From a virus, in IMG/VR virus record IMGVR_UViG_3300025849_000009: a DNA stretch of 64,000 bases; one strand, written 5' to 3'. How positions within the stretch are numbered: position 1 is the first letter of the stretch; each line of letters opens with the position of its first letter. The notes below the pieces were generated by a model. It was not told where the DNA came from and ran no database searches. It saw only the letters and a list, made by a program, of their open reading frames with translations. The position numbers and the translations under genes are program-made. Of the stretch, positions 191-63,605 are shown one piece after another.

Positions 191-1279
191 TTAGTGATTG
201 TTCATTATATCTATTAAATTATTAGCTGTTCCATTATTAAAAGAATAACTTGAGTTTGTTAATCCAATTGTACTATAATTAGTACCTGATGAATAGTCAA
301 ACATAACACCGCCGTCTGATGAATTATATTCATCTAGTACAAACATTAATTCATAAATTTCTTGAAACATTTTATCTTTAATTTTTGAATCAATTCCACT
401 ACCACATGTGACTGCAATTAAAAACGTTCTTCTACCACCTGGGTTAAAGTTTGATCTGCCTTGAATTTGTCCACCAACAGTAGATCTCATTGTTCCAGAC
501 CATCCGCCTGCTGCAGGGACTGAAGATTCCTCAGTTTCATATTTTTTATATTTCTTAATAACTTTAGAAATAGCTTCTGCTAGTTTTACAGCGTTTCTGC
601 CCTGAAAAATGTCGTAAGAATCTTTTGCAGTATCACCTTGTACCATTAATGGTTCTTTATAACTTGGTAATTTACCTGATTTTAAAGTAGATTCAACAGC
701 GTTTAAAATCCCACTGTATGAATCTCCCCATTTTTCTACTGCTATTTTAGCAAGCCTAAGCTTGTCTTCTAATTTAGCTTTAATTCCTTTTTTACCAAAA
801 GACACTGCCTCGTTTACAAATGCTTCGAATAATTTTACGTGTTTAAGTTTATGCGTATTTTGAATTTTAGATTCATTTATATCCATACCGTCCCAATCCC
901 ATTTGTAATGTTTACCATCAGCAGCAGTACCTAGATAACCATACATTCCTTTTTTAAAGCCATCAAAGAAAATGGCAGCACCATACTCTCCAAGTTCATC
1001 TTGAACATACTCTCTTGCACCGGCTTCATCAAATTCTTCTACAAAAACACCACCTTCTTCAAAGAAGAATAAAATTCCAGATCTTGTGTTAATTGAATCA
1101 CCCTCAAACCATGCGTCATTATCCTCGTCGTATGAATCTCCTTCATCATCTGGATCACCATACATGTCGAAACCCGACCATTGAGATATACCATATGCTA
1201 GTGCTTCTTTTTCTGTCTTAAAGAAATTCATTTGAGCATAATCTCCAGATCTTTCTCTTACGTAAAATATTTTTGCCAT
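191..1279 (-). CDS. Two-module hypothetical protein, putative internal head protein
   Basis: N-terminal domain paralogous to that of 1304..3253; internal DINES..KLKHVKLFEAFVNE motif separates a second domain. Confidence 0.6.
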   Translation of the reverse strand: MAKIFYVRERSGDYAQMNFFKTEKEALAYGISQWSGFDMYGDPDDEGDSYDEDNDAWFEGDSINTRSGILFFFEEGGVFVEEFDEAGAREYVQDELGEYGAAIFFDGFKKGMYGYLGTAADGKHYKWDWDGMDINESKIQNTHKLKHVKLFEAFVNEAVSFGKKGIKAKLEDKLRLAKIAVEKWGDSYSGILNAVESTLKSGKLPSYKEPLMVQGDTAKDSYDIFQGRNAVKLAEAISKVIKKYKKYETEESSVPAAGGWSGTMRSTVGGQIQGRSNFNPGGRRTFLIAVTCGSGIDSKIKDKMFQEIYELMFVLDEYNSSDGGVMFDYSSGTNYSTIGLTNSSYSFNNGTANNLIDIMNNH

Positions 1280-1303
1280 CGTGTTATTATTTTTGTTTGT
1301 TAA

Positions 1304-3253
1304 TTACCACGCGTAATCAAATGTTTTGATTTTATTAATTCTATCCTTGATATTCTTAGCATAGTTTTTAGTTTCTCTTTCGTACCAGCTTTCAGCTGCT
1401 CCATATCTTTCTTTAGATTCTTCGCCCTGTCTAACATAATCACAATATCTAGAATAGTCATCTAATATATTTGACATATGATTAGAAGCATCTCTTAATT
1501 TAACAACAGATCCTCTTTTGTTTGTTCCAATCATGATTTCACCATATTTGGTTTTCTCACCTTTTTTTAATCCATTTTGAATTTGTGCAGTTAATTCATC
1601 AATTGCATCTGAGACCATTTTATCTAGTGGCAATTTAGCCGCGTTGTTAGCTAAAATAGTTTCGTATCTTTTCTTATTTTCAGATTTAAAATCATCATGT
1701 GATTTAAATGCTGTAGCTCCTGATTTTGCTGCTGCTCTATCTGCTCTTTTATTTGCAGTTGAATACTTTTGTTGTAATAAATCAACGTTGATAACAATAG
1801 CTCTATCTGCAACTTCTGCAATTCTCTTTACATTGTAGAGTCCAGTTGCATCCCATCCTTTGTATTTTTTACCAATACCTATAGAATCTGTTGGATTATT
1901 ATCTACTGCTTTAAGGTTTCTATCTTTGTTTTTTCCACGGAATCGACTAGTCGATGACCAAACTTGATCATAGAATTTATTACCACCAGAAGTAACAGCT
2001 AATAAATAACCTCCACCTGGGATAGTTTTATTACTTACATATGCATCATAAGGTGCATGTGGATTTTCTTTTTCATTGTCTGAAATATAAAAAATAATAG
2101 AATTTGATTGTTTTGCTTTATATGCAGTTTGTGGGTCTGTAGTAATAAGATCTTCATCTTGTACTTTGTCTAATGCTACTTTAGTAGAACCATAAAATGC
2201 GCTTGCTAAATGTTTGTCTAATTTACCAGATTTTCCTCTAAATAATTCAGCAAGTCTTTGTGAACCGAATGCTTCATTAACTGTTGATTCGTTTAAAGAG
2301 TTAACAAACTCGCTAAATGATTCGTAAATAAATGTTGTTTTGTTTTTTGGTGTTTCCATTTTTATATTTGATGTATTTTCTTTTACTAATTTTGGATTTT
2401 TATTCAAAAGCTCTTCCATGTCTATTTCAGTTAATGACATAAAACTATTTTCTCCATACTTTTTAGATAATCTATCTGCTTTTTTAATGTCTATTACTTT
2501 AGATAAATCGTCATAATCTAAAGTTGCTACTCCAAATTCTCCAAACATTTCTTCCGCCATTGCGTTTGCAACTTTAAAAGGAGTTGCCTTCTCGTTAAGT
2601 GTAACCGCTGTTGATGGAATGATTGATTTTAATATTCTCATACCTGTTTTAGAAAGAGAGATACCATCTTCACTTACGTTAAAATACGCTGTGTTTCTTC
2701 TTAACCATCTTGTAGAATCAGTTGTCATTTCTTTAACAATACTTTTAAATTCTTCTTGGGAAATTTTACCATCTTTAACAGCTTCTAATACTTTATTTCT
2801 AATTTTAGCAGCTTTACCAACAGATTTTGCTGGATGGTTTTCAGTATACTTTCTTTTAACAATTATATTTCTTTCTTCTATAGATTCATTAACCTCACCA
2901 TCTTCAAATTTCCAGGTGTAACCTTTACCTTCTGCACCCTTTTTACTTAAAATCCCATACATACCTTTTTTAAAACTATCAAAGAAAAGGGCAGAATCAG
3001 CTTCTTTTTTTGTATATTTTCTTGCCTCTTTATCGCTATTATGCCCCTGGATGTATGCTCCGTCTTGCCATGTTAGTAAAATGCCAGTGATAGCGAAATC
3101 TCCTTCCCATCGTATATCTTTAACTCGGGCCCATTCCATTTCAAAGTCTGAAAATTGAGATTTGCCATATTTTAATGCTTCTTCTTTTGTTTTAAAGAAA
3201 TTGAACTGCTCACTATCTTTAGTTTTTTTACTTACGTAGTATATCTTTGCCAT
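1304..3253 (-). CDS. Multi-module hypothetical protein, putative internal head polyprotein
   Basis: 649 aa; segments delimited by EVNESIEE, TLNE, LVKE, and an internal FIYESFSEFVNSLNESTVNE motif. Confidence 0.6.
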   Translation of the reverse strand: MAKIYYVSKKTKDSEQFNFFKTKEEALKYGKSQFSDFEMEWARVKDIRWEGDFAITGILLTWQDGAYIQGHNSDKEARKYTKKEADSALFFDSFKKGMYGILSKKGAEGKGYTWKFEDGEVNESIEERNIIVKRKYTENHPAKSVGKAAKIRNKVLEAVKDGKISQEEFKSIVKEMTTDSTRWLRRNTAYFNVSEDGISLSKTGMRILKSIIPSTAVTLNEKATPFKVANAMAEEMFGEFGVATLDYDDLSKVIDIKKADRLSKKYGENSFMSLTEIDMEELLNKNPKLVKENTSNIKMETPKNKTTFIYESFSEFVNSLNESTVNEAFGSQRLAELFRGKSGKLDKHLASAFYGSTKVALDKVQDEDLITTDPQTAYKAKQSNSIIFYISDNEKENPHAPYDAYVSNKTIPGGGYLLAVTSGGNKFYDQVWSSTSRFRGKNKDRNLKAVDNNPTDSIGIGKKYKGWDATGLYNVKRIAEVADRAIVINVDLLQQKYSTANKRADRAAAKSGATAFKSHDDFKSENKKRYETILANNAAKLPLDKMVSDAIDELTAQIQNGLKKGEKTKYGEIMIGTNKRGSVVKLRDASNHMSNILDDYSRYCDYVRQGEESKERYGAAESWYERETKNYAKNIKDRINKIKTFDYAW

Positions 3254-3278: not shown

Positions 3279-5126
3279 CTATATATTCTTAATAAATTGA
3301 TCGAATGTTAGTGTTGCTATTTCAGTCTCTTCTAAAACTCCCATAGAATCTTCTAATTTAGATTTTAATTCATTATACATATCATGTATCGGTTTTGGTG
3401 TTAGCTTCTTAAATAGCTTCTCATCACCATCTAACATTGCATTTCTTACTTGTGTTGCTGATATATTCTTGCCAGTTCTTGGTATTTCATAAAGTCCAAA
3501 ATCAGTTCTAACTCCAAGATCTTCTCTATATTCTGGTTTATCTACTTGAAATCCATAAGTTTTCATTCTGTCACTTCCGGTTCCCCATAACACTGGTTCG
3601 TATTTTGGCCTCATTGCATTAAACATAGTGTCAATACCGCCCGTTGGAATTACAAAAACTTCTTCAATTGGATATTTAGATTTTAATCTATTAATCATTG
3701 CAACTTGAGTGTCCTCATCATAAGGTCTTTTAAATGCATCTTCTTTTTTCTTTTTCTTAGCCTTTACTAATAAGATTACGACCGGGTGACCATTTTGTTT
3801 ATGAATAGTTTCAACTACTTTAGCATGGCCCAACGTAAAAGGCTGAAATCTACCAACAAACATATTAACTAATTTCTTACCATGTTCTGGGTAATCTACC
3901 TTTAATGCTTCTAAAACAGGAGATTCATTATATTGTAATTTTTGATTTAACAGATATGACTTAAAATTAAGAACATCATTTTCATTTGTTTTTGCCATTA
4001 CTATTGCATCTATACTATCAACTATTTCATTGATCTGCGACATTAAATCTTTATTAATAATATCTGTTTCTTTGTTTCTCTTTTTTCTAAAACTACCCAA
4101 TGCTATTTTATACAATTCTGATAAAATGTCATTCTGTATTAATGATAGTGTTTTTTCATTTGTAATAAAAACTGGATTTAATTTAAAACTTTTGTTTTCT
4201 GAAAAATCCGCAGAATTAAAACTAGCTCCTACATATTTAGAAGCATTCTTTTCAATGTATGCATTAAAGATGTGTGAAATTAATTCAATGTATCGTTCTG
4301 CTGAATCTTCTGATTCTAAAGAAATTTCTTCAAGATTAAACTCTGTAATATACTCTACTAAATCTAATATTGCAATCTGATACATGTCAGATGGCTCTCT
4401 TTTTTTGGCATCCTTCCTGTCAAATCTTTCAAGTTTAAAACTTTTTTGATTTTTACCTTCATAGAAGTTTACTATTAAACCATCTATATCATTATCTAAA
4501 TTAGAATTTAACGTTGGATTATTAAGACCTATGTTAAATATATTAAATATAGCTCTTGTAAAAGATTGATCTTTGAATTTGATTTTAAAATCAGAATCAG
4601 AAAGTTCTAGTAATCTAATTAAGTCATCTTTTTGATTTGATTGTAAAACTCCTTGAAATATAACCGGAGGTTTTTGAACACCTAATAATTCTGACCACTT
4701 ATTTAAGACCTGTGGATCTCTAATAACTTTTTTGATTTGTGTGGGATTTTTAGGATTTAATATTTGTATATGTGTTAGTATTAAGTGATTTTTAGGAAGA
4801 CTTTCATATTCGATATCTACTGTCTTATTGTCAATCATGTAGTCAAATCCGAATTTCCAATCATGTGGCATATCTTCTTTTACATCTTTAGGAATAGCTT
4901 TAAAGTAATTGATACCATTTTCATAGTATCTTACCATAGTTCTATCTACTTTATCCATTTTATGTTTAGAACCACTTTTAAAATATTCATAACCAGTACT
5001 AGTGCTTTTAACATGAAACGAAGATGCTTGTATTTTTTCTGATACAACACATGTTAATTTCAACATTGAATTAAAATCATTAATGTTGGTTGATTGAAAA
5101 TATGTTCTTAAATTTTGTAATGCCAT
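3279..5126 (-). CDS. Degenerate RNA-ligase-fold domain fused to HIGH-superfamily (cytidylyltransferase/NMNAT-like) nucleotidyltransferase
   Basis: C-terminal GRFQPFTLGH, GSDR and ISATQVR motifs; N-terminal EKIQA, LGVQKPPVIFQG, DGLIV and SFKL resemble covalent nucleotidyltransferase motifs I/IV/V. Confidence 0.7.
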   Translation of the reverse strand: MALQNLRTYFQSTNINDFNSMLKLTCVVSEKIQASSFHVKSTSTGYEYFKSGSKHKMDKVDRTMVRYYENGINYFKAIPKDVKEDMPHDWKFGFDYMIDNKTVDIEYESLPKNHLILTHIQILNPKNPTQIKKVIRDPQVLNKWSELLGVQKPPVIFQGVLQSNQKDDLIRLLELSDSDFKIKFKDQSFTRAIFNIFNIGLNNPTLNSNLDNDIDGLIVNFYEGKNQKSFKLERFDRKDAKKREPSDMYQIAILDLVEYITEFNLEEISLESEDSAERYIELISHIFNAYIEKNASKYVGASFNSADFSENKSFKLNPVFITNEKTLSLIQNDILSELYKIALGSFRKKRNKETDIINKDLMSQINEIVDSIDAIVMAKTNENDVLNFKSYLLNQKLQYNESPVLEALKVDYPEHGKKLVNMFVGRFQPFTLGHAKVVETIHKQNGHPVVILLVKAKKKKKEDAFKRPYDEDTQVAMINRLKSKYPIEEVFVIPTGGIDTMFNAMRPKYEPVLWGTGSDRMKTYGFQVDKPEYREDLGVRTDFGLYEIPRTGKNISATQVRNAMLDGDEKLFKKLTPKPIHDMYNELKSKLEDSMGVLEETEIATLTFDQFIKNI

Positions 5127-6409
5127 TATCTTCCGTATTTTATGATACCCATTAATTGATTAATGGCTGCAAACGTACCTGTTAATTTCATTGTTTTTCC
5201 TTTGTACACAAAAACTATTCCTTCAGTTGGTATAATAGATTCTATTCCTCCAATTCTGTCTAACCTAGCAAGTTCAGCTTCAACCTTTGCGATCTGAGCT
5301 GCACCTCCTGTTTTCTTAATACCTTCAGCTTCTGTTCTTATTTGATCGTGCAACCTTTGCATTTCAGCATCTGGGTTTGCTGCAACAAAATTAGAAGCAT
5401 TCTTAAGGATAATAGAACCCAATTCTAAGAATAAATCCTCAAATGGTCTAATGTTTTCCTTGTATTTTTTCTTAACATCTTCTTTATCAAATTTCTTAAT
5501 AAGAGATGCTTTATCTTTACCTAAATCTTTGTCTAATGATCTTAAGTTTAGTGTCTTTTTATCACCATACGCCCATCTTAAAAGAAGTCCTTCTTTATGA
5601 TCTTGTTCTAAATCAGAAAAGTTTGTATCAATAGTTTCTCTCCACCACATTTCGTGATATCTTGAAACTTGATCATCATCTGATAAACCATAACGATCTC
5701 TTAGTGATTCTACTTGTTTGATAAATTTAGCTTTGTTCTTTTCAAAATCTAAATCTTTTCCTATTTTAATAACTTGAGGTGGAATTACTGTAAATGTTTT
5801 GCCAACATTAATTTTAAGATCTTGCATTGCTTTAGCGATTGATCTTGCTGGTTTGTTATCATCTCCAATAGTATTACCTTCACCGTCAGTTTTCTTTATA
5901 CCATGAAATTGAATAACATCACGATCATAATAGATTACATTAGGATTCTTAGAGTAAATTAACTCCATATTCATAAAGTTTTTACCATTATCAAAAACTT
6001 CTAAATCTTTAGGGGATAATTTATTTAACGAGCTTGCTAAATCTTCTGCAGCAAATTGAAAAGTATCTTGTACTAATGGACTAGCATGTCCTTCAAACTT
6101 ATTCTTAAAAGTAGCAAGGTCCATTGGATTTGCTAATTCAGTTTTATTTCTGGCAAATTTTACTTCTCCATCTTGAACTGTTGCAAATACATTTTGACCG
6201 TCAGTTTTTTCAGTTGCTTCTTCTTCGAAGTTTAGTTCACCATATAATCCTGCTTCAATAATTTTCTTAAAATCACTAAATGTTAAATCTTTCTCATCAA
6301 ATGGATGTGACATGTGACCTGCTGCACCACCTTCTAAAATAAGAGATTCTGGTACACTAATATGTAGTCGTTCAGTTATAAATTCATTAAAATTAGTAAA
6401 GATCTTCAT
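5126..6409 (-). CDS. ATP-dependent ligase-fold protein (DUF6267-like), putative head-packaged
   Basis: EGGAAGHMSHPFD, TEKTDGQN (motif I KxDG), EGIVF (motif IV), MKLTG (motif V); N-terminal MKIFTNFNEFITE. Confidence 0.65.
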   Translation of the reverse strand: MKIFTNFNEFITERLHISVPESLILEGGAAGHMSHPFDEKDLTFSDFKKIIEAGLYGELNFEEEATEKTDGQNVFATVQDGEVKFARNKTELANPMDLATFKNKFEGHASPLVQDTFQFAAEDLASSLNKLSPKDLEVFDNGKNFMNMELIYSKNPNVIYYDRDVIQFHGIKKTDGEGNTIGDDNKPARSIAKAMQDLKINVGKTFTVIPPQVIKIGKDLDFEKNKAKFIKQVESLRDRYGLSDDDQVSRYHEMWWRETIDTNFSDLEQDHKEGLLLRWAYGDKKTLNLRSLDKDLGKDKASLIKKFDKEDVKKKYKENIRPFEDLFLELGSIILKNASNFVAANPDAEMQRLHDQIRTEAEGIKKTGGAAQIAKVEAELARLDRIGGIESIIPTEGIVFVYKGKTMKLTGTFAAINQLMGIIKYGR

Positions 6410-6429: not shown

Positions 6430-8538
6430 TTATTGTCCCAATGAGCTAGTTAACATACCAACTGCAGTACCATAATCTCCATCTGCTTTAGATAAAATAC
6501 CGTCTATAACTTTTTTAGCTTTGGTTTTGTCAAAATCCTCTCCAAATGCTTTTTGCAAAACAGTTATCGCATATTCTTCAAATTCTTCATCCGAATTAAC
6601 TTCTGATTCAGTAACTACTGATTCAAAGTAATCTTCATAATCAGAAACTGAATCCGGACCCCATACATCAGCTAAGACCTTTTCAATATCTTTTCTTTTA
6701 CCAGTTAATTTAACTTCAGGGTAACCATGGTCTCCTTCTTCTTTTTCAACTTCCATTTCAACCCTGTTCTTCTTTAAAGATTGAACTAAAGGTTTGAATT
6801 TAGTTGGGTGGATGCCATCGTCGTTTCCAAATTCTATACCTGAAAGAGAGGCTTCAGTAACTACTGATTCATTGTATAAATGAACATAGTTTTTATTTTT
6901 CTCAGAATAAACTGATTTGATTTCAAATTCTTTTTGTCCTTTTGTATAATATGCTTTAAAGAATAAATTTTCATCAAACTCTCCAAAGAAATGATCTGAT
7001 TTACCGATAAAGAATTCAGCGTTTGGATAAATTTCAAGAACCTCTTCTTTTGTAGTTGCCTTTAAAACCGCGTTATCAAAGTCTTTTACGAATTTAGCTT
7101 CTGTGACTGATTCACTTAATGAATTTCTTAGACCACAGTGTGTACATTCTACTGTTCCATCTTTATCAATTTGCTTATATAGGTGTCCTTTTCTATTAGT
7201 ACACTTAGGTTCGTCTGATTCAGTAACTACTGATTCTTCAATAGTAGCCTCATTATAACTTACAATATCAGAATATTCAATTTCATGTTCTTCTCCGTCT
7301 TGGTCCAATGCAAATATTGTTTTATCTCCCCACATGTCATCATTACTATCGTTGCCATTACCATATGCATAAATAACATACTCTTGTCCGTTTCCTAATT
7401 GAATCATACCATCATCAGCTTTCATAGCTTTCATTAAAGACTTTTTATTATATGATTTCTCATTAAGCGCATCTCCTTCGTCATATGCAAATGACTCAAA
7501 CATATTAAATGCATTTAGTAAAGCTTGACCTGATGCTTCTTCTTTAATACTCTCTAAATAAAGAGCAGTACCTTCAACAATCCCAATTCCTGACCAACCA
7601 GCTGCATTTGCAAGATCACTATAGTGTTTGTCTAAAATTCTTTTTGTAGTAGTAGCACCGATTGTTAAAAAGTGATTACCTAAACCTGCTACTTTTAATT
7701 CAAATGAACCTATTCTACCTTTAATGTTCTTAGATATAACTTTTTCTCTATGAAAGTTAGCATCTGTCATTGCTTCTTCGAAAAGATACTTAATACAACC
7801 TAATGTGCCTACTTTATCCATTGCACCAAAATCTGTTAGTTTCTTAGTAAATAAATTTTTATAGACGGTTAAAACTTTTTTTGCATCTCTTTTATATTGA
7901 ACTGAAATAGCTTCATTTACTGAAGTAGTTAAAGATTCAAATGCTGGATAAACATCATCATATCCTTTACCGTAAATATCTGCCATTAACCATTCTTTAT
8001 TAGCTTCATCCCATAAATATACAAATTCGGCACCGCCATCATTTGCAACATCTCTTAAATATTTAGATATATTGGCAACTTTACCTTTAGATGCTGTAAA
8101 GTTTCCATAATAATTCATCCCTGTTGGATCAGCTTCTAAACCTGAATTATCTCCATTTTTAAGAACAATGTTTAGCGGTGAGCCACCCTTTAAATATGTT
8201 TTCTTAATAAGCGGTAACACGTTTTCAGGATATGAATCATAATGCATGTATACAGAAGTGATATTTCCTCTTTTGTCAATTTTACCAATTTGTCCTCTAG
8301 TTCCTTCTTCGATTAAAACAACAGCTTCATTAATCTCAGCTCCTCTTAATTTAGTAAAAAACTCAATTCTTTGCTCTTCGGTTAATTCTTTGATAGAAGT
8401 AACTTTAAATTCACTAAGTAAATTTTTATACGTTTCTGCTTCAGTAGTTCTTTTAGTAGAATTTTCTTCTTCTATTTGCCTAGATCTATTGATTTGCGAT
8501 TCAGTTGAAAACTGATCAAAAGATTTTAATTTATGCAT
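6430..8538 (-). CDS. Modular polyprotein-like internal head protein
   Basis: N-terminal MHKLKSFDQFSTE; repeated ESVVTE/ESVTE/VNE/LNE linkers; contains a GTR...YxHYDSYP phage domain and a C-x5-H...CxxC Zn-ribbon-like module. Confidence 0.6.
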   Translation of the reverse strand: MHKLKSFDQFSTESQINRSRQIEEENSTKRTTEAETYKNLLSEFKVTSIKELTEEQRIEFFTKLRGAEINEAVVLIEEGTRGQIGKIDKRGNITSVYMHYDSYPENVLPLIKKTYLKGGSPLNIVLKNGDNSGLEADPTGMNYYGNFTASKGKVANISKYLRDVANDGGAEFVYLWDEANKEWLMADIYGKGYDDVYPAFESLTTSVNEAISVQYKRDAKKVLTVYKNLFTKKLTDFGAMDKVGTLGCIKYLFEEAMTDANFHREKVISKNIKGRIGSFELKVAGLGNHFLTIGATTTKRILDKHYSDLANAAGWSGIGIVEGTALYLESIKEEASGQALLNAFNMFESFAYDEGDALNEKSYNKKSLMKAMKADDGMIQLGNGQEYVIYAYGNGNDSNDDMWGDKTIFALDQDGEEHEIEYSDIVSYNEATIEESVVTESDEPKCTNRKGHLYKQIDKDGTVECTHCGLRNSLSESVTEAKFVKDFDNAVLKATTKEEVLEIYPNAEFFIGKSDHFFGEFDENLFFKAYYTKGQKEFEIKSVYSEKNKNYVHLYNESVVTEASLSGIEFGNDDGIHPTKFKPLVQSLKKNRVEMEVEKEEGDHGYPEVKLTGKRKDIEKVLADVWGPDSVSDYEDYFESVVTESEVNSDEEFEEYAITVLQKAFGEDFDKTKAKKVIDGILSKADGDYGTAVGMLTSSLGQ
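6607..7236 (-). repeat. Three identical dispersed 18-nt repeats TTCAGTAACTACTGATTC (encode ESVVTE on minus strand)
   Basis: Exact copies at 6607-6624, 6853-6870 and 7219-7236. Confidence 0.9.
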
Positions 8539-28744: not shown

Positions 28745-31700
28745 TTATCTGGCGAATCTAGTTAGCTTCGCGGCTCTAATAGAATTTAAGTTTTTACCTT
28801 TAGCTCTATATTTGGCAAACACTTCTAGATCAAATGAGAATTGTTGATCATATTTGTCAAAAATATCTAATCCTATTTTCTTAGTGTATGTAAGATTTGG
28901 GAATCTTAACTTAGCTTGACCACCTACTCTACCAATATCAGAATCAGGATCATTACCAAAATAATCTGTCATTCTATACTGAAATATAATATCAACTGAA
29001 AGAGCATTAGAACTATCTAAAGTACCAACCTTCTTTTTAATACTTTTTCTGCTTTGTTTAGCATCACCTTCAACTTTTAAAGTATCTAAATTAATAGGTG
29101 ACAAAAATAAGAATGCTCCACATGAACGTCCACCTAAAAGAAATTGATCATTTGCATCAAATGACATTTTAAATGTTCTATCTCCAGATTTAATAAAATC
29201 GTCTGTGGTTTTTTGAAATGCTAATTGTTTTGTAGCTTTAACTGCATCCACCAGTGGCGATGAAAAACTTGAGCCTATCAGTGGATTATTATAAACAAAT
29301 GTTGTTCCAGTTGCATATGTAGAAGTAATTGGCATTGTATAAAGCGCATTATCTACAACATCTTGTAAATTAGCTTTCTGATCTGCCAAAGAAACACTAC
29401 CTGAATTAGGTGCAGTTTCAGAAACATGTGAATATATGTTCTCTAAATCTGGATGGTCCTTGTGAAGATATAAGCCATTGTTATAATTTGCAGCACCTAT
29501 AGTTCCAATACTACATACATCTATTTTATCAGGTTGAAAACCTTCGCTTAAGTCTGCATTTGTAGAATTATTATGTGTGCCAAACGTTCCGGTCCAGATA
29601 AAATCTACTGAATTACCATTACCAGTTGGTTGGTTAATACTGATTGCATTTGAATCACCCTCAAATATAGCATATCCTAAACCATATTCATAACTATTAA
29701 AATTTGCCTGTCCACTGCCAAGTAATGATTCAGTAACATATAGCGGATTTTGATTTGAAACATCCATGAATCTAGAATAAACAAATTGACCACGTCTTTG
29801 AGCCGATTGATATGGTGCTTCAGCTAATAAATCATAAGAATTAATAGAAGATGTGTTTATGTTTTGAAACTGAATAGGAACTAAATCATATTTACCTTCA
29901 GATGTATAATAATTATCTGACGAAATTTTGTTATCTGTATCAGCAACTCCTAAATCATTTAATTTTACACCAAATCCATTATCAGCAATGCTAGTACCAG
30001 ATGCACTAGATCTATATGCTGGCAAGTTTCTATCTCCAACTAATCTTGAAACTAATTCAAGTTTAGTAGCTTTTGTGTTTTCTAATAGAAGTTTAAATGT
30101 CTTTGTAACAATGTGTCCTTTTTTAACAGTAAGACTCGCAACCTCGTCAGTATAATAACCAGCGAATATTTGGTTTTTGGTGTTATTATTAATAACGGTA
30201 ACTGTACCGTCTTCATCCATTATTTTAACAACTAATTCACCTATTTCAACTTCTACAGTACCCTTAAGTTCTGAAATTTGTAATTCTAACTCAGCAATTT
30301 TATCATATACTGAGATGGGTTTTTGTTCAGCTGATAAGAATCCCGATGCAATTGATGTTGCGTTATGTGCATAGTATTTTTCATTAGCACTAAATGAATC
30401 ATCAATATGTGTAAATACACCCTTAGAAGTAAGTTCTTGAGATATTTTAACAGACGCTGTTTCGGCCGCGTTTGACATTAACAATGCATCAACGTTAGTA
30501 GTGTCAATTTCTGTAATAGGAAAATCAATTGTAATTGATTCTGACCAATCAGAATATATTGGGTTTGCAGGATATCCAGCTTCAGATACTGATTTAACTC
30601 TAATTTCAACTAATTCACCTTCGTTAATTGCAAGATCTAATTGATTAAAGTTTACCTCTTGTGCATCTTCTACTAAACTATCTTTCCACTCAAATTTTCT
30701 AGTGATAGAATTTCTGTATCTAGATCTAACTTTAGTTTCCATTTCATTCCAGTTAGAAAAGACTGCTGTTTTTTCTCTTGTTCCATCAGTAAATGGTAGT
30801 TGAGTAACTTCACTTGCTTTTCCGCTAGTTGACAAATATCTATATTGTACAACAAATCTCACAATGTTTTGATCCAATGTATCAGCAACTTTCTTTGCCA
30901 CTGGAATTTCCCAGAAACCTCTAACTCTATATTTAGGGGCAATTTTTGGAGCATTACTTCCAGATGCTAATGACTGAATTTGATTTACGATACTATTGTA
31001 TAAACTAGTTTCACTAGTTCTCTCTGTAATAAGTGAGTTCAATTCGTTTCTATCTTTATCCTGCTGTATCGAAGATTCATATTTTTTAGTAGAAATTTCA
31101 GAACGTTTCTTAACAATAGTTTCATCTAATTTCTTAATCTTTTCTTCTACATTAATTTTATCAGCAGATAGCTTTTTGATTTTATCAGCAGTATCATTAG
31201 CTGTCAAGTGAGAGTTAATTTGAACTACTTTAAAGTTATTATTATTTAAAGAAGGTGCATCAGGTGTAATACCCTGTGCAGCTGGAGGAATAGCATCTTC
31301 CTTAAGCGCAGTAATATATTTACCAAAATCAGCAACTTCCGCTTTGTAATAATCATCTAATCTAATTGATGATCCATCGGCTTGAATTAATGTTAATTCA
31401 TTTGAATAAAATCCAATACCTGGTGACCAGTTTTCAGCCAATATTTTAGAATCTGAATCTATGGCTTTAACAAAAACCAATGTTCTTTCATTAAATCCTA
31501 CATTAATGTCTATGCTTAAGTTAGCCTCATTGTTTTTATATATGCCCAGCTGATTAGCACCAATCTTAATAGATTCATATCCTTCTACTATTAATAGTTC
31601 AACCTGATTAGTCGAACCATCGATTCTAGTTATTTTATACCTGGTATTTCTAGCACCGCTTTGAACCATAAGTTCATCTCCAACTTTAAGTGCTTCAGTA

Positions 31701-32461
31701 TCTTTTAGATCCTTGTTAGAATCAGAGTACGTTAAAGAATCTATCGTATATAATTTTATAGCTTTCTTTTTAGTAACACCATCAACTAAAACTTCTCTTT
31801 TAGAATTACTAATTTTTAACACATCGAATTTACCAGTAAATTGTGCTGTTCTATATGGAAGATCACGAGTATCTTCATCTAATATATATGTTAGGCTATT
31901 ATTTGCAATATCTCTAATTACAGTGTTATAGTCTAGGTTTTCTTTGTTTTTAAAATTAGTATTAAAATATTCAACAGTGACTGCGTTTGTAGAATCAAAT
32001 AAAATTCGTTTTACTAAAACTCTTTCAGTTTCATTTGGAATTTGCCCACTAACATTAATACTAGTTGTAAGTAAAGGATTTAAAAAGTCTTCAAAGAAAT
32101 AATTAGGTTTTGTACCAAAATTAACTGGTCTAACAAAACTAGTTATGTCATTTGCAGGAGTTTTTAATCGTGTTGTAATAATACTTTGATATGTGCCATC
32201 TGGTAATTTAATCCTAGTATTTCCCTTTCCTAAACCAGCTAAAGATTTTAAATTAACATCTAATCTTTCTAATTCTCTTTTCATGTAACCAAATGAAGGC
32301 ACATAAACCGTTTTGGTTCCATCTTCAGTTAGTAATTCAAGAGGTACGTCTTTTTGATCTGTAGTTATCGCCTCATTAATTCTTTCAAATGTCTTTAAAG
32401 AATTTGAATTAATTTCAAGTAGTTTCTTGAGCGAATTAGAAATAGAGTTATTAGTATTCAT
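28745..32461 (-). CDS. Large hypothetical structural protein with central coiled coil and FN3-like segment
   Basis: Heptad region KIKKLSADKINVEEKIKKL...; VEIRVKSVSEAG...SDWSE FN3-like motif. Confidence 0.5.
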   Translation of the reverse strand: MNTNNSISNSLKKLLEINSNSLKTFERINEAITTDQKDVPLELLTEDGTKTVYVPSFGYMKRELERLDVNLKSLAGLGKGNTRIKLPDGTYQSIITTRLKTPANDITSFVRPVNFGTKPNYFFEDFLNPLLTTSINVSGQIPNETERVLVKRILFDSTNAVTVEYFNTNFKNKENLDYNTVIRDIANNSLTYILDEDTRDLPYRTAQFTGKFDVLKISNSKREVLVDGVTKKKAIKLYTIDSLTYSDSNKDLKDTEALKVGDELMVQSGARNTRYKITRIDGSTNQVELLIVEGYESIKIGANQLGIYKNNEANLSIDINVGFNERTLVFVKAIDSDSKILAENWSPGIGFYSNELTLIQADGSSIRLDDYYKAEVADFGKYITALKEDAIPPAAQGITPDAPSLNNNNFKVVQINSHLTANDTADKIKKLSADKINVEEKIKKLDETIVKKRSEISTKKYESSIQQDKDRNELNSLITERTSETSLYNSIVNQIQSLASGSNAPKIAPKYRVRGFWEIPVAKKVADTLDQNIVRFVVQYRYLSTSGKASEVTQLPFTDGTREKTAVFSNWNEMETKVRSRYRNSITRKFEWKDSLVEDAQEVNFNQLDLAINEGELVEIRVKSVSEAGYPANPIYSDWSESITIDFPITEIDTTNVDALLMSNAAETASVKISQELTSKGVFTHIDDSFSANEKYYAHNATSIASGFLSAEQKPISVYDKIAELELQISELKGTVEVEIGELVVKIMDEDGTVTVINNNTKNQIFAGYYTDEVASLTVKKGHIVTKTFKLLLENTKATKLELVSRLVGDRNLPAYRSSASGTSIADNGFGVKLNDLGVADTDNKISSDNYYTSEGKYDLVPIQFQNINTSSINSYDLLAEAPYQSAQRRGQFVYSRFMDVSNQNPLYVTESLLGSGQANFNSYEYGLGYAIFEGDSNAISINQPTGNGNSVDFIWTGTFGTHNNSTNADLSEGFQPDKIDVCSIGTIGAANYNNGLYLHKDHPDLENIYSHVSETAPNSGSVSLADQKANLQDVVDNALYTMPITSTYATGTTFVYNNPLIGSSFSSPLVDAVKATKQLAFQKTTDDFIKSGDRTFKMSFDANDQFLLGGRSCGAFLFLSPINLDTLKVEGDAKQSRKSIKKKVGTLDSSNALSVDIIFQYRMTDYFGNDPDSDIGRVGGQAKLRFPNLTYTKKIGLDIFDKYDQQFSFDLEVFAKYRAKGKNLNSIRAAKLTRFAR

Positions 32462-58189: not shown

Positions 58190-58696
58190 TTATTTTGCTT
58201 CGTACATTTCTTTAAGCTCATCAATCTTTTTATTGTAAGCTTCTTTGATACCGTTTAGACATGCTTCGTACATTTCTTTAGTAAGTCCTTCTCCATGTAT
58301 CTCAGCGTTCGCATCTTCTGCTGACTGAGCAACTAATGTTGCAGCTAATGCTGCGTTTTCTTTAAGGTAAGACTCAACTGTGTGGTCAGGATAGTCATCT
58401 CCTTCATAGTCACATGCTTCTTTGACAGCACACTCATATGCTTCTGTCATCATTTCTGAAACTGCCTTTACAACCTCTTCCTCTTTTTCAACTTCTTCAG
58501 CCTCTTCAACGTCTTCAGTTTCTTCTTCAGTTTCAGTTTCTTCTTCAGTTTCTTTTTCGTCTTCGCCCTCTTTTTCTACTTCGATTTCATAATCTCCGTC
58601 TACTTTAATTTCGATTTCGTCTTCAGCTAACTTATCTGTATCCGCTAGATTTTTATTAGCAGCATACTCTTCGAATGATAATATTTTTTTGTCCAT
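58190..58696 (-). CDS. Highly acidic protein, putative prohead core/internal protein
   Basis: MDKKILSFEEY start; Glu-rich ETEEETETEEETE; late motif at 58716-58723. Confidence 0.6.
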   Translation of the reverse strand: MDKKILSFEEYAANKNLADTDKLAEDEIEIKVDGDYEIEVEKEGEDEKETEEETETEEETEDVEEAEEVEKEEEVVKAVSEMMTEAYECAVKEACDYEGDDYPDHTVESYLKENAALAATLVAQSAEDANAEIHGEGLTKEMYEACLNGIKEAYNKKIDELKEMYEAK

Positions 58697-58731
58697 GTTA
58701 TGTTGTTATTTTTATTATATATCTTAGTATA

Positions 58732-59214
58732 TTATAGTGTTTCTATTTTATTGTTTTTCATCCAAGTTGATAATTCACTTTCTGCTCTATCAAAAAGTCT
58801 ATTTCTGTTAATACTTAATCCAAAATTATTAAAGTATTCTTTCATTAAATAGTATGCAGGTTCTACTGATTCTCCATTAGCAACCATATCACTCACATGT
58901 TTTGAAACTTCATATGCATAATACGCGGCTTTTTCTGCCATAGGGTTTGTCATTGCATTATAAAAATCTCCACCGTAAAATTTACCTACAGTTTCTCCAA
59001 ACTTTTGTTTCATTTCTATCCATGAAATCCCTTCTAATCCAATCCATAATTTAGCTTGGACCGCCTTAGTGTCTTTTCTAATAAAACCTTCTTTTGCCAT
59101 ACCCTTAGTTATCTCTAGGATTTTCTTAGGAATTGGTAATTTGCCATTATCTTTTTCCCATGCTTTGATTTCTTTATCATTTACAAATGATTCAAATAAT
59201 TTTATGTATTTCAT
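58732..59214 (-). CDS. Hypothetical protein with capsid-targeting-like N-terminus
   Basis: MKYIKLFESFVND. Confidence 0.65.
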   Translation of the reverse strand: MKYIKLFESFVNDKEIKAWEKDNGKLPIPKKILEITKGMAKEGFIRKDTKAVQAKLWIGLEGISWIEMKQKFGETVGKFYGGDFYNAMTNPMAEKAAYYAYEVSKHVSDMVANGESVEPAYYLMKEYFNNFGLSINRNRLFDRAESELSTWMKNNKIETL

Positions 59215-59220
59215 ATCGAT

Positions 59221-59907
59221 TTATGCCTTAGACCTTTTTTTTACTGTTTTGAGTTTCGCCTTTAGGGCTAATTGGTTTTTTTGAACAGCTATTTTCATGC
59301 CATCAACAGAAGTTTGTTGCATTTTTGATTTTAATAATGCAGTTTCTATTTTATCAGCAGGTTCTTTTGATTTATCTTTAGATTTTTTATTTATCAGTTC
59401 AACAAAATCTTTGTTCTTCTTAGATAAACCTTTTTGTTTTTTAGTAAGATCTTTTATTTTTTGTTTATCGCTTTTTGGTTTACTCTTCTTTTTCTCTAGA
59501 ATAAATTTATCTAAAGATAAAACGTTAACCATTTCTTCAACTTTACCCATCTTTTTTGATAGTTCCATTGCCCAATCAACTCCTTCGTCTCCGCCCCATA
59601 TTAACCAAGAAACATAACCTTTATCTTTCCATGGAGTTTCTTTTAATTCGGGCTTAATAGATGAATTTTTTCTATGTCTATTAAATGAAGCCATACGCTT
59701 TACTGTATCACCAGATATGTTTTCACCTTTAGCTAATTGATGTGCTCTTGCCCAACCAACTGCAGTTCCAGCATCCACTTCTTCACGACCATGTTTTTCT
59801 TTCCAATCGATAGCCATTTGAGCATTTTTCTTTGCTGCTTCTGGATAATCGTTGTAAGTATCATCATCTCTGACTTCAGATTCTAAAAACAATTTAATAT
59901 ACTTCAT
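59221..59907 (-). CDS. Conserved-looking phage protein with capsid-targeting-like N-terminus and Lys-rich tail
   Basis: MKYIKLFLESE; YNDYP...GTAVGWARAHQLA...TVKRMASF..RH...GYVSWLIWGG; second motif VLSLDKFILE before the basic tail. Confidence 0.65.
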   Translation of the reverse strand: MKYIKLFLESEVRDDDTYNDYPEAAKKNAQMAIDWKEKHGREEVDAGTAVGWARAHQLAKGENISGDTVKRMASFNRHRKNSSIKPELKETPWKDKGYVSWLIWGGDEGVDWAMELSKKMGKVEEMVNVLSLDKFILEKKKSKPKSDKQKIKDLTKKQKGLSKKNKDFVELINKKSKDKSKEPADKIETALLKSKMQQTSVDGMKIAVQKNQLALKAKLKTVKKRSKA

Positions 59908-59910
59908 GTA

Positions 59911-62439
59911 TTATATATTGTTATTTCTATGTGATTGATCAAAGTGATTCTGTTCCTTTAGCTCTTTATCATGTCCTTCGTCTCTAACTTCTTTAGCAAC
60001 ATCTTTGTCAGCATCTCCCCAAGTTCCTTTACCTTTTGTTAAAAATGCATTTACTCGAGCGTATCCCCATTGTTGTTCAGTTGCACCCGGCCTATGACCA
60101 GTTTTCCATGCCGCCATTCCTCTTCTCATAATAATTCTAATAATTCCAATTGGTACACCGGTTTCTTCTGATTTTGTCTTAAGTGCTTTTTCAATTTTAG
60201 GATCACTGATTGGACCTCTATCACCTTCAACCTTTTCTAAAATATCACATTCTGCTAATTCTTCTTGAGCAAACTCATTATATTCTTTAGCCCACGCTTT
60301 CCATTTAGATGGTCTAGCATAATCAGATAAAATCATATCGATAGCATCTGGTTGAGAAATCTGAGAATTAATATCATTCCATACTTTATCTGCTAACCAT
60401 CTACCAGCTTTTGCGTTTAAATAAGATAGGGCTCCAGCGTCTGAGAATTTCCAACTCTTAGTTAGTATTCCCCACACATCGTTCCATATTTCTTCAATCT
60501 CATAAGAGTCCATATGAACATCTAAAGTTCCCCAAAATCCATACATTTGATTGATGTCATCTGTATTATATTGTAACTTTTTGCCGAATTTAAAATTAGG
60601 CACTCTACTTTCTGTAATTAAATCTTCATTTAATGTTTTTAATAAAGAATTAAAAAATCTAGGTGATAAAGACTCTACGAATCCTCTTTCTTCAGCATCG
60701 TTCTGTATCCACTCTTTGTCTTTAGAAGAAAGCTTTTCATAATCTTTATTAAATCTATGATGCGATATTAAATCATAGATATCTTCTAAATTATAATTAC
60801 CTTCATTGGCCTTTCTCATGTCGATCCAAACTCTAATAATATCTGCATAATCTTTGGCAGTTAATTTAGTTTTATTTCCATGAGTTGTTCTATCATTAAG
60901 ATCGAACATCTGCTTAGCAAACTTATCGATATTACCTGATTTAAAATATAACGTAGCTCTTTGTCTTCCATTATCTAATAATTCAAAAGTTTCTTCTTTT
61001 TCATCATGTGGATCTAATCTCCAACCAGCTGAATGATTAACTCTAATATCTAAACCACTAGAATTACTATCAACAACTACAGTCCAATGACCAGAAGACT
61101 GATATGTTTTTCCTTTAGCATACTTGATTTTCTCTTCGTTAACTAATGATTCATATACTAAATATCCATTAGATCTAGCAAAAACATTAGACTCATCGTT
61201 CCACTGTTCTTTAGTACTACTTATTGAAATTTGTATATAATTCTTTGCACCTAAATCTGGCTGTATAAGAAAAACTAAATCATCACTACCAACATAAAGA
61301 TCCCAATTTCTACCTGATTTTTGAGTTAGTAATAATTGAAAATTAGAATCTAATTCCTTTTTAAGTTCTCTTGTATTTGGAAAGCTTCCACGACCCGTAG
61401 AAAAACCATCTCTGTATTCTAGTTCATCTCCAAAAGAAAGTTGATCTACGAATTTTTGTAATCTTTCTTCTTCATCATTCTCAAAATAAAACTCATTAAC
61501 TACTGATTCAACACTAGTTGCTTCATTGGCAGATTCTAAAATAATAGAATTTAGTCTTACTTCTTTTTGAAATCTACCACTACGTACATCGTCAGTTACT
61601 TCTAACTTAACACCATACATTGCTGTTAATTTTACTTTTACTTTTTTACCATTATGTTCCGCTTCAAATTCTTTAAATGCATTTGCTTGTCGACCATAAT
61701 CTGTAATTTCATATTCTCCATCTTCTGTATCAAATATAGTACCTATGCTAAGTTTCCTAAGAATCTTTGCACCCATCATTGATATTTTAGAAGAAGATAT
61801 GGTTTTTCTTTCAGTAACTAATGATTCTAATATCTTTGAATTTTTATCTATTGAAAAAATAGTTTCTTTTTTTCTTATAATAGAAATTCCCTTGAATGTC
61901 GATTTGTTAAAATATTTGTTACTTCTGTTCTCATATCTTTTTAATGAAGAGTGATCTGCAAACACACCGCCTGGAATGTTGTATATGATAGTTCCCTTTG
62001 GTAACACTATATTTGTATAATTGCCAATTTGAACACCTTCAACATCTTTTTTTAATTCATATTTTCTATTATCTAAATTATATGTACCTCCACTCATAGT
62101 GCCTGAGTTTGGTCTAAATGTTGCTTCATCTAGCGACTCGTCTTTTTTATCACCATATAATTCATGATATTTCTTTACATGTTTAGATGTTTTAACTTCA
62201 CCCTTTTCTCTAGCTTCCTTATCACCTGGCATTTCTTTATATGCGCTGGAATCATCGTCAGCCATGTCTGATTGTTTTTTTATCTGATCTTTTTTATCTT
62301 CAATCTCATTATCGTCTAACCCTCTATGATATGGTTTTGGACCTGGTTTTGCTTCTGACAAATAATATGCGGTATACTCTTCTCTTGTCATGTTTAGTTT
62401 TGCAGCTTGCACTCCTAGGAAATCGTTAAAATTGCTCAT
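59911..62439 (-). CDS. Modular polyprotein-like internal head protein with DUF5824-like terminal domains
   Basis: Likely start MSNFNDFL at 62439; linkers ESLDE, ESLVTE, ESVVNE, ESLVNE, LNEDLITE; C-terminal RRGMAAWKTGHRPGATEQQWGYARVNAF. Confidence 0.65.
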   Translation of the reverse strand: MSNFNDFLGVQAAKLNMTREEYTAYYLSEAKPGPKPYHRGLDDNEIEDKKDQIKKQSDMADDDSSAYKEMPGDKEAREKGEVKTSKHVKKYHELYGDKKDESLDEATFRPNSGTMSGGTYNLDNRKYELKKDVEGVQIGNYTNIVLPKGTIIYNIPGGVFADHSSLKRYENRSNKYFNKSTFKGISIIRKKETIFSIDKNSKILESLVTERKTISSSKISMMGAKILRKLSIGTIFDTEDGEYEITDYGRQANAFKEFEAEHNGKKVKVKLTAMYGVKLEVTDDVRSGRFQKEVRLNSIILESANEATSVESVVNEFYFENDEEERLQKFVDQLSFGDELEYRDGFSTGRGSFPNTRELKKELDSNFQLLLTQKSGRNWDLYVGSDDLVFLIQPDLGAKNYIQISISSTKEQWNDESNVFARSNGYLVYESLVNEEKIKYAKGKTYQSSGHWTVVVDSNSSGLDIRVNHSAGWRLDPHDEKEETFELLDNGRQRATLYFKSGNIDKFAKQMFDLNDRTTHGNKTKLTAKDYADIIRVWIDMRKANEGNYNLEDIYDLISHHRFNKDYEKLSSKDKEWIQNDAEERGFVESLSPRFFNSLLKTLNEDLITESRVPNFKFGKKLQYNTDDINQMYGFWGTLDVHMDSYEIEEIWNDVWGILTKSWKFSDAGALSYLNAKAGRWLADKVWNDINSQISQPDAIDMILSDYARPSKWKAWAKEYNEFAQEELAECDILEKVEGDRGPISDPKIEKALKTKSEETGVPIGIIRIIMRRGMAAWKTGHRPGATEQQWGYARVNAFLTKGKGTWGDADKDVAKEVRDEGHDKELKEQNHFDQSHRNNNI

Positions 62440-62449
62440 GTTGTTTTTA

Positions 62450-62905
62450 TTATTTTGGTAATCTAACCATAGTATCTTTAGTTTGGCTCTTATCCGTATT
62501 CTTGACAAAATCAAAGTTTTTATAAAACTTATTTAATCTAGAAATAGAAGTTGCTCCAAAATCTTTAGAAGGTGTTAGATATATTTTTAAATTTTGTGTG
62601 TCAGCATAGTCAGTAATTCTTGACATAACCTTAGAACCGATCCCTTTATCACGATCCTCTTTTTTTACTTTTATTTTACTAAGTTGTAGGTACTTACCAT
62701 TATCATATAAATCTAATTCTATATTGAATTGATCTTCTAATTCTTGTAAGATGAATTGTTCTCCTAAAATAGGTGTATTATCATGATTACATTTATGACA
62801 AATAAACACATCGTGTCCACCCTCTTCTATTTCCCAAGACCAACCACAGTTATCACAAGATACTTTGTTTGCCGTAAACTCCTCGAATAGTTTTATATAT
62901 TTCAT
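62450..62905 (-). CDS. Zn-ribbon plus GNAT acetyltransferase, capsid-targeting-like N-terminus
   Basis: MKYIKLFEEF; CDNC...CHKC; acetyl-CoA motif RDKGIGS; FYKNFDF. Confidence 0.8.
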   Translation of the reverse strand: MKYIKLFEEFTANKVSCDNCGWSWEIEEGGHDVFICHKCNHDNTPILGEQFILQELEDQFNIELDLYDNGKYLQLSKIKVKKEDRDKGIGSKVMSRITDYADTQNLKIYLTPSKDFGATSISRLNKFYKNFDFVKNTDKSQTKDTMVRLPK

Positions 62906-62906
62906 A

Positions 62907-63605
62907 TTAAAATTTCGGTATACCTCCTATTTTTGCTGCTCTTCGTCTCCAGAGATCTAATACTTGTTCTCTTTCTTCGTCATTAATAACACCTTGTTCC
63001 TGTTGTGTATCTAAATATCTACCAACAGTATCGCTCATGTTTTCCTTTCTCTTCTTAGCTTCATATCTTAATCCTTGTAAATTAGCATCCACTTCTTTAG
63101 GTAGCATTAGATACTGAGATTTTGGTAAAAGTCCCATTTTTATATAGGCTCTTAGTTCACTATCATCTTCATTAGGTTTACCTTTTCTATAATTTCCGGT
63201 GTCAATTCCGTCTTGTGTAATATGTTCCATTTCATGACGAACTACATCTGCTAAATGAAAATATACCATTGACCATTCTCCTGGAATCCACTCAGGATTT
63301 AAAGCAAAGTCTATAATAATATAAGGTGTTTGAAAGTCACCGTGATCATCATCGTCTCTACCATCTGCACCTGTTGAATCTAATACTTGAAATCCTTCAT
63401 ATTTTTTATCAATATGAATAGTAGCCTCAATATCAAATTCTAAACCTCTCTCTTCAATTTGGTCTCCATAATTTATAGTAGCGTTCCCGCCTTTATATGA
63501 TTTAACCCATTTATTGAATATAGCTTTAGTTAATTTGGAAGCTAATCCATCATATGCAGATCTTCCTTCACCAATAAAACTTTCATATGTTCTAATATGT
63601 TTCAT
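62907..63605 (-). CDS. Putative zincin metallopeptidase, capsid-targeting-like N-terminus
   Basis: MKHIRTYESFIGE; HEMEH plus downstream EVDA third-ligand motif. Confidence 0.7.
   Translation of the reverse strand: MKHIRTYESFIGEGRSAYDGLASKLTKAIFNKWVKSYKGGNATINYGDQIEERGLEFDIEATIHIDKKYEGFQVLDSTGADGRDDDDHGDFQTPYIIIDFALNPEWIPGEWSMVYFHLADVVRHEMEHITQDGIDTGNYRKGKPNEDDSELRAYIKMGLLPKSQYLMLPKEVDANLQGLRYEAKKRKENMSDTVGRYLDTQQEQGVINDEEREQVLDLWRRRAAKIGGIPKF

Follow-up and report, generated by a model that had tools for sequence, protein, structure and literature searches.

An array of eight modules encoded by a single gene

The window, that is the whole stretch of DNA analysed here, comprises 64,000 nucleotides of the virus record IMGVR_UViG_3300025849_000009. 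It is part of a T4-like myovirus with all genes on one strand, among them those for gp32, primase, UvsW, a Dda-like helicase, dCMP deaminase, and gp6-like and gp5-like baseplate proteins. Here, we focused on a minus-strand open reading frame (ORF) at 6430-8538, the product of which is a 702-aa protein (79 kDa, pI 4.9), referred to below as the array. A sequence-only reading of this DNA had claimed that the protein splits into about eight unrelated modules, and that three of its linkers are encoded by exactly the same 18 nt; both claims were upheld. The window contains exactly three copies of the linker word GAATCAGTAGTTACTGAA (6607, 6853 and 7219), each of them inside the array gene, in frame and reading ESVVTE. 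At two of the copies, the identity runs on to 23 nt. When the degenerate back-translation pattern of ESVVTE was counted in shuffled sequence, the mean was 0.01 per shuffle, and none of 100 shuffles reached three. Further junctions are a shorter ESVTE (aa 476-480) and three [ILV]NE sites (aa 69-71, 207-209 and 358-360). Divided at these places, the chain gives eight segments of 40-151 aa and 4.5-16.6 kDa, mostly acidic. The features are as follows, with a slash marking a junction and the basis of each assignment in brackets.

6430-8538, minus strand: whole array gene, 702 aa (ORF)
8500-8538, minus strand: N-terminal 13 residues, MHKLKSFDQFSTE, like the T4 capsid-targeting sequence, CTS (pattern)
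8326-8538, minus strand: module M1, aa 1-71, helical, always first in homologues, ending INE/A (model and homologues)
7912-8325, minus strand: M2, aa 72-209, alpha/beta domain, phrog_1987, ending VNE/A (model and PHROGs)
7459-7911, minus strand: M3, aa 210-360, helical domain, ending LNE/K (model)
7219-7458, minus strand: M4, aa 361-440, taking in linker copy 1 (homologues)
7219-7236, minus strand: linker copy 1, ESVVTE, aa 435-440 (exact 18-mer)
7099-7218, minus strand: M5, aa 441-480, C..H..CxxC, zinc-ribbon-like, ending ESVTE (7099-7113)
6853-7098, minus strand: M6, aa 481-562, taking in linker copy 2 (homologues)
6853-6870, minus strand: linker copy 2, ESVVTE, aa 557-562 (exact 18-mer)
6607-6852, minus strand: M7, aa 563-644, taking in linker copy 3 (homologues)
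6607-6624, minus strand: linker copy 3, ESVVTE, aa 639-644 (exact 18-mer)
6433-6606, minus strand: M8, aa 645-702, three-helix unit (model and homologues)

An AlphaFold2 model of the 702-aa protein, built with 68 homologues, had a pTM of 0.32. The stretches of low predicted local confidence (pLDDT) at 71-78, 202-209, 350-365, 426-453, 469-487 and 531-577 are the linkers, while M2, M3 and M8 were modelled as confident domains with values near 90, and M7 near 80. Given that the low-pLDDT stretches are the linkers and that homologues hold the segments in other orders, we take the segments as separate units. Structure prediction, which the sequence-only reading had put forward per segment as a check, thus agreed for the whole chain with the division into modules, and the array protein is a beads-on-string chain of eight independently folding, mutually unrelated modules.

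Module order varies in a large marine family

A word-index search in which 8000 candidates were scored identified 1163 relatives of the array, and an exhaustive search gave 735 representative clusters (456 with E <= 1e-10), many of which matched in several separate stretches. The relatives are unnamed metagenomic proteins, mostly marine, of 118 to more than 1000 aa, and they carry the same modules in varying orders and combinations. Among 121 complete members, defined by a CTS-like start and M8 as the last module, 62 architectures were found, and 50 module families had at least 3 members. M1 stands first in all homologues and M8 last in nearly all (146 of the 160 having it, with 43 different families preceding it), while M7 was found next to 16 upstream and 18 downstream families. 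Such fixed ends are the expected pattern if only pieces with linkers on both sides are exchangeable. No cultured array homologue came to light, as tblastn with the whole protein and with its C-terminal half gave no match among 50,697 phage records; a megablast of 24 kb for cultured relatives gave no match either.

The nearest record is LR756500.1, a 462-kb uncultured phage of which our locus L049 is the region 266500-273500. Its syntenic gap between the UvsW and ligase-like genes holds separate small genes with CTS-like starts, and no array. One relative (G008) carries a second array of 1072 aa (10535-13753 of contig L135), about 4.4 kb downstream of the first. This second array has a CTS-like start of its own, its linkers read ES..[TN]E, and single-cargo CTS genes come next.

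Cassettes are exchanged on the linker DNA

The breakpoints between homologous and unrelated sequence were then compared with the linker positions. Abrupt breaks were defined as ends of high-scoring segment pairs (HSPs) of at least 75% identity with flanks below 20% identity. We found that 69% of the starts and 62% of the ends lay at most 10 residues from a [VILA][TN]E site, compared with about 20% of random positions, and most other abrupt breaks fell at variant linkers outside this pattern, such as ESLIAE and ESIVIE. An earlier and broader test using all HSPs gave 34-41% near linkers, compared with 16% for random positions.

At the DNA level, the homology between locus L004 and the query, that is the array gene of the window, stops at the last base of linker copy 2 and restarts at the first base of linker copy 3, with an unrelated module in between. 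Linker copy 1 is both the breakpoint of an insertion in L004 and the start of a 95%-identical cassette of locus L010. In locus L001, M7 is absent and a single linker remains at its position, while in L010 two tandem copies of M7 are present and M5 occupies a different place. The DNA identity to L010 is 95.4% for M5 and 92.6% for M7, compared with 79-81% for the rest of the locus, and this far closer likeness of the two modules than of the backbone shows recent single-cassette transfer between diverged phages.

All loci kept the order of primase, a 140-aa gene, UvsW, the array, a ligase-like gene and a nucleotidyltransferase. Proteins flanking the array in L001-L008 are 97-99.7% identical and the module set of the array differs, indicating that the array locus is a hypervariable spot in a stable backbone. 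The sequence-only reading had proposed that modules are gained, lost or swapped on the 18-mer, and the orthologues were indeed not colinear. Taken together, the replacement in L004, the deletion in L001 and the duplication in L010 show that these events start and stop on the 18-mer linker DNA in natural populations. This in-frame exchange on 18 nt is direct evidence of a mechanism by which recombination shuffles protein domains.

The adjoining gene (5126-6409, minus strand) encodes a 427-aa ligase-like nucleotidyltransferase with the CTS-like start MKIFTNFNEFITE. It is only 77% identical where the other flanks reach 97-99.7%, which marks it as a second hypervariable gene, possibly packaged.

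Since all homologues are metagenomic contigs, such breakpoints might also be produced by chimeric assembly across a short repeat. However, a repeat of 18-23 nt is shorter than the k-mers that decide the final contigs, the identical 702-aa protein is present on 8 contigs from different samples, the members of a 765-aa allele cluster are found on up to 41 contigs, and the same architectures were seen again in data from JGI, ENA, Logan and Tara. An assembly artefact is therefore hardly credible.

Linker codons are non-random

Codon choice was counted in 35 strict linkers from 21 non-redundant homologous genes. The linker Ser was TCA in 32 of 35 cases against a background of 37% (p 3e-11), and the first Val was GTA in 28 of 31 (background 36%, p 4e-10). 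The second Val was GTT in 25 of 27 (background 59%) and Thr was ACT in all 21 (background 55%). The linkers are thus alike beyond ordinary codon usage, in line with what had been read from the three copies in the window. Relatives with no more than 32-54% identity to the query also carry the same linker word. Linkers differed by 1.68 nt within genes and by 2.11 nt between genes (permutation p 0.007), a weak signal of concerted evolution.

The linker word also holds a 6+6 inverted repeat, TCAGTA-GT-TACTGA, in each of its copies (6607-6624, 6853-6870 and 7219-7236), and the preferred codons are exactly those that form this palindrome. Consequently, we considered whether the 18-mer is kept for a nucleic-acid role, as a site of a dimeric recombinase or nuclease or as an RNA hairpin, with the peptide being secondary. 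However, the Asn linker variants of relatives break the inverted repeat and keep the TCA-GTA-GTT codons, so that selection for a palindrome or hairpin is not supported, and AAT was not preferred over AAC (9/14 against a background of 62%). Moreover, the weaker junctions (INE/A, VNE/A and LCE/A) follow the peptide rule and not the DNA word, and no recombinase is associated with the locus. We regard a nucleic-acid role as very improbable.

The junctions follow the rule of a T4-type prohead protease

To read the junctions in homologues, nine module families were anchored on internal motifs and the upstream residues were read, giving about 530 junctions. P1 was Glu in 159/160, 45/45, 34/34, 48/48 and 104/105 junctions, and Asp occurred twice in the roughly 530. 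P1' was A or S and P3 was V, I or L, while the upstream E-S was less constant. The junction rule is thus [VIL]-x-E/[AS], usually within E-S-V-V-T/N-E, and the form of a hydrophobic-x-Glu cut site followed by a small residue was found at the seven junctions of the query and at the homologue junctions alike. Counts of the motif [VIL][TN]E[AS] are 6 in the array protein, 5 in the two island proteins next to it and 4 in the remaining 18,800 residues of the window, which corresponds to 8.5 per 1000 aa in the array and about 0.2 per 1000 outside the island. It has been reported that T4 gp21 cuts after L/I-X-E, initially seen as a Glu-Ala bond, that Asp at the cut position of the T4 CTS prevents processing (PMC9026906), and that T4 Alt is cut at ITE and LTE (PMC5694885). 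The junctions of the array match the gp21 rule, and on these motifs cleavage is likely.

Two paralogous proteins of 362 and 649 aa (191-3253, minus strand) carry [VI]NE[AS] at about 5 per 1000 aa, about 20 times the density outside the island, and are probably, judged by these sites, further cleavable cargo chains.

No head genes were found in the 64 kb of the window. We therefore performed a contig walk over public contigs encoding exactly the proteins of the window. The contig of P0001, an identical 702-aa protein, overlaps contig L145 with 99.98% identity over 10,584 nt, and L145 encodes, in this order, gp2, Portal_T4, a 112-aa acidic protein, a 699-aa Peptidase_S77-scaffold protein, Gp23 and a 596-aa protein. 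This overlap indicates that the phage of the window has the T4-type head maturation machinery. The relatives G003 and G007-G011 also carry both a T4-type head module and polyprotein homologues.

Sites of the same form were found on these head proteins. The Gp23 capsid protein of L145 has LNE/A and INE/S within its first 26 residues, and the protease-scaffold has VTE/A about 26 residues from its C-terminus, plus VNE/S and others. Each of 42 capsid-protein variants of relatives has at least one such site near the N-terminus, and the C-terminal site of the protease is also conserved in relatives. Moreover, the 112-aa and 596-aa proteins have an N-terminal tag of the array's type, closed by ISE/D and VNE/S, respectively, and a cassette of about 50 aa is common, at 77-97% identity, to 24-39 array-family members, the 596-aa head protein and the scaffold part of the relatives' protease.

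The sequence-only reading had taken the linker as a protease cleavage site and a recombination joint at once. Its recombination part is supported by the breakpoints above, while for the protease part the comparison made here gives consistency only.

Given the conserved P3, P1 and P1' residues, we also considered that a protease distinct from that of the prohead cuts the chain in the cytoplasm, yielding equimolar small proteins that are not packaged. Such cutting would explain the conserved residues without packaging and would suit a gene placed among replication genes. However, no other protease of such specificity is evident near the gene, the motif is that of the sites on the same phage's capsid protein and protease-scaffold, and both the tag and the cassette common to prohead-core proteins point to the head. 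We consider cytoplasmic cutting quite improbable.

Several features of the head region and of the genomes are recorded here in their own right. The Peptidase_S77 domain is fused to a long acidic, repeat-rich, scaffold-like region in proteins of 686-699 aa (L145, 13151-15250; L108, 10050-12110), while protease (gp21) and scaffold (gp22) are separate genes in T4. The CTS-tagged 596-aa protein (L145, 16880-18670) adjoins the capsid gene and combines a long Thr-Glu dipeptide repeat with an array-family cassette. In L141 (13188-19454), a family-B DNA polymerase appears to be split into ORFs of 467 and 402 aa, which are parted by two ribonucleotide reductase subunit genes and a 247-aa ORF. CheckV assigned 52-59% completeness to array-bearing contigs of relatives of 161-179 kb, which suggests genomes near 300 kb.

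A capsid-targeting-like tag and single-cargo forms

The T4 CTS is MKTYQEFIAE. In T4, targeting is affected by positions 4 and 7 of this sequence, and processing by positions 8 and 10 (PMC9026906). A CTS-like start pattern was found in 8 minus-strand ORFs of the window (the array and seven others) and in none of the 61 plus-strand ORFs, and the island genes of relatives have CTS-like starts as well. The N-terminal MHKLKSFDQFSTE also resembles the start of the 112-aa prohead-core-like protein; its CTS likeness is by pattern only.

The same modules also occur as single cargo. In P0152 and P0228 (both M7) and in P0177 (M3), the module follows a minimal CTS closed by LNE/A or LTE/A, and P0230 is a single-cargo protein of a tag and M2. 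That the same modules stand directly behind a tag ending in LNE/A or LTE/A makes the linker positionally equivalent to a CTS cut site. Stand-alone, untagged relatives of M2 were found in the cyanophages P-HM1 and S-SCSM2R, and their initiator Met aligns 7 residues after the junction. The cyanophage proteins thus begin 7 residues past the predicted cut, and the junction coincides with a natural protein N-terminus.

Two further observations concern tags in the window. Five small ORFs of 151-232 aa (58190-63605, minus strand) have CTS-like starts of the MK.IK.[FY]E.F type, and this cluster, which lies beside the dCMP deaminase gene, may be a second internal-protein island. A 1238-aa protein (phrog_29329, 28745-32461, minus strand) reads ..KTFERINE/A at residues 24-31, and its start looks like a tag and cut site on a large virion-region protein.

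The modules were searched for function. Pfam gave no family for the array protein (best match E 0.3), PHROGs gave only families of unknown function, and a PDB sequence search gave no match. Foldseek of the full model and of a model of M2 and M3 had no match in the PDB at E <= 0.001, and VIA-align against 48,161 chains had a best Z of 4.7, which is background. In BFVD, only uncharacterised small phage proteins were found, each matching one module, while in the ESM Atlas M2 matched only unnamed viral clusters and M3 had no match. The label of effectors that the modules had been given earlier is unsupported, as no module has a recognisable function.

Scans for promoters were uninformative on the timing of expression, since the T4 late-promoter word was not enriched (10 found, 16 expected) and sigma-70 promoters were at background level.

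A capsid-targeted cargo polyprotein as the favoured reading

On balance, the sequence evidence makes it probable that the array is a capsid-targeted cargo polyprotein of a T4-like marine myovirus, cut by the prohead protease. The CTS-like peptide, together with the helical M1, would bring the whole chain into the assembling prohead core. The S77 (gp21-type) protease would then cut after each linker Glu, as for the capsid protein and the scaffold, and the pieces of 4.5-17 kDa would stay in the head and enter the host with the DNA, like T4 internal proteins. Homologous recombination between linkers would add, remove and exchange cassettes, within a genome or between co-infecting phages. Since every cassette is bounded by the same in-frame 18-nt word, exchange spares both the reading frame and the cleavage sites.

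Several points weigh against this reading. The cyanophage relatives of M2 are untagged, indicating that a module alone is not necessarily head cargo. The tag of the query ends in S-T-E, with a P3 that is not hydrophobic, and some homologues have no Glu there; given the Ser at P3, cutting may begin at residue 71 instead. In the searches above, neither a function nor a fold relative could be recognised for any module. Conserved residues within M8 likewise keep their codons among orthologues, which means that part of the linker DNA conservation is ordinary shared descent; the telling point is then that one word is common to linkers before unrelated modules. The likeness of the linker DNA may serve recombination, or it may merely be kept by recombination and common descent. 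Finally, the array has replication genes (primase, UvsW and the ligase-like gene) as its neighbours, and cleavage, packaging and injection are predicted from motifs.

The last two points would also suit a multidomain protein that is never cleaved and works whole in the infected cell, for example as a scaffold of small binding domains, with the linkers as spacers that happen to be good recombination junctions, and it has been proposed that polyvalent proteins can be delivered unprocessed (PMC5512222). However, a spacer needs neither an invariant Glu, nor A or S next to it, nor V, I or L at P3, and should tolerate Asp, and the linker is without Gly, Pro or a Ser-rich flexible stretch. Moreover, CTS-like tags on neighbouring and head-module proteins end in the same tripeptide, and the same modules are found as single-cargo CTS proteins. 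We hold an uncleaved protein to be unlikely.

Building on the cargo polyprotein, we tentatively propose a broader scheme, which is possible but has the odds somewhat against it. The linker would be a dual-code element and the array a "protein integron", in which the same 18 nt give both the cut that frees the cargo and a homology patch for capture and exchange. Exchange might take place between co-infecting phages and among the array, single-cargo CTS genes and even prohead-core proteins, possibly via excised circles. It could thereby give abundant marine giant T4-like phages a reconfigurable, injected first-strike set for anti-defence or takeover.

A widespread uncultured marine T4-like lineage, represented by more than 1100 homologues and by contigs from many ocean samples, and with genomes estimated at about 300 kb, thus seems to make the one-tag-one-cargo principle combinatorial: one label, many cargos, and a connector that is both cut site and recombination joint. 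If true, this would explain strain-level variation of the injected payload, yield dozens of candidates for anti-defence or takeover proteins, each small, independently folding and naturally delimited, and offer a design rule, taken from nature, for packing several proteins into a T4-type capsid.

Comparison with known systems

Cassettes flanked by a promoter and stem-loop (PeSL) at internal-protein loci of T4-type phages (Arbiol et al. 2010, PMC2839356; Comeau et al. 2014, PMC4122927) resemble the array in that short conserved flanks of variable ORFans provide patches of homology through which insertion, deletion and replacement occur in hyperplastic regions, with precise cassette gain and loss between near-identical genomes. 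PeSL elements, however, are intergenic, about 100 bp long, and consist of an early promoter together with a stem-loop, while the 18-nt repeat of the array is inside a reading frame, encodes a peptide with a likely function of its own, and has to be exchanged in frame. The array is one ORF with no stops or starts between modules, and the promoter scan was at background. The likeness to PeSL is one of analogy only.

Polyvalent proteins (Iyer et al. 2017, PMC5512222) join many unrelated domains, and their co-delivery with DNA and proteolytic release have been proposed by analogy with RNA-virus polyproteins. The array shares their multidomain character according to the AlphaFold2 model. In contrast, their signature domains (among them MPTase/zincin peptidase, ArdC, MuF, ART and ParB-like) were not found in the array by Pfam, there is no embedded peptidase, release is predicted to be by the prohead protease at a standard linker, and the modules are smaller (40-150 aa).

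Several post-Glu cuts in one chain by a gp21-type protease have been described for prohead-core and inner-body proteins (PMC9026906, PMC5694885). T4 gp22, gp67 and gp68 and head proteins of phiKZ, 201phi2-1 and SPN3US are likewise multiply cut, and one array cassette is common to the relatives' protease-scaffold. The cuts in prohead-core proteins, however, remove or fragment propeptides and scaffold, while the pieces of the array are folded, independently occurring, shuffling domains.

No description of such linker-joined cargo arrays was found in the literature. New here are the connection between the array and its own phage's head module, the cassette common to prohead-core proteins, and the alignment with the cyanophage N-terminus.

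T4 internal proteins are the textbook case of injected proteins directed against host defences. IPI, IPII, IPIII and Alt are built like the array, from a short tag with spaced aromatics, a hydrophobic-x-Glu site and then an unrelated cargo, and the array phage has the same T4-type head module. In T4-type internal proteins, the cargo set is highly variable between related phages and the tag alone is conserved (PMC3012670, PMC9026906). T4 uses one tag and one cargo per gene, whereas the array has one tag and up to ten cargos, reuses the cut-site motif as the linker between cargos, and has no sequence homology to the T4 proteins. For the array, packaging is a prediction. Overall, the array is most likely a variant of the T4 internal-protein cargo theme.

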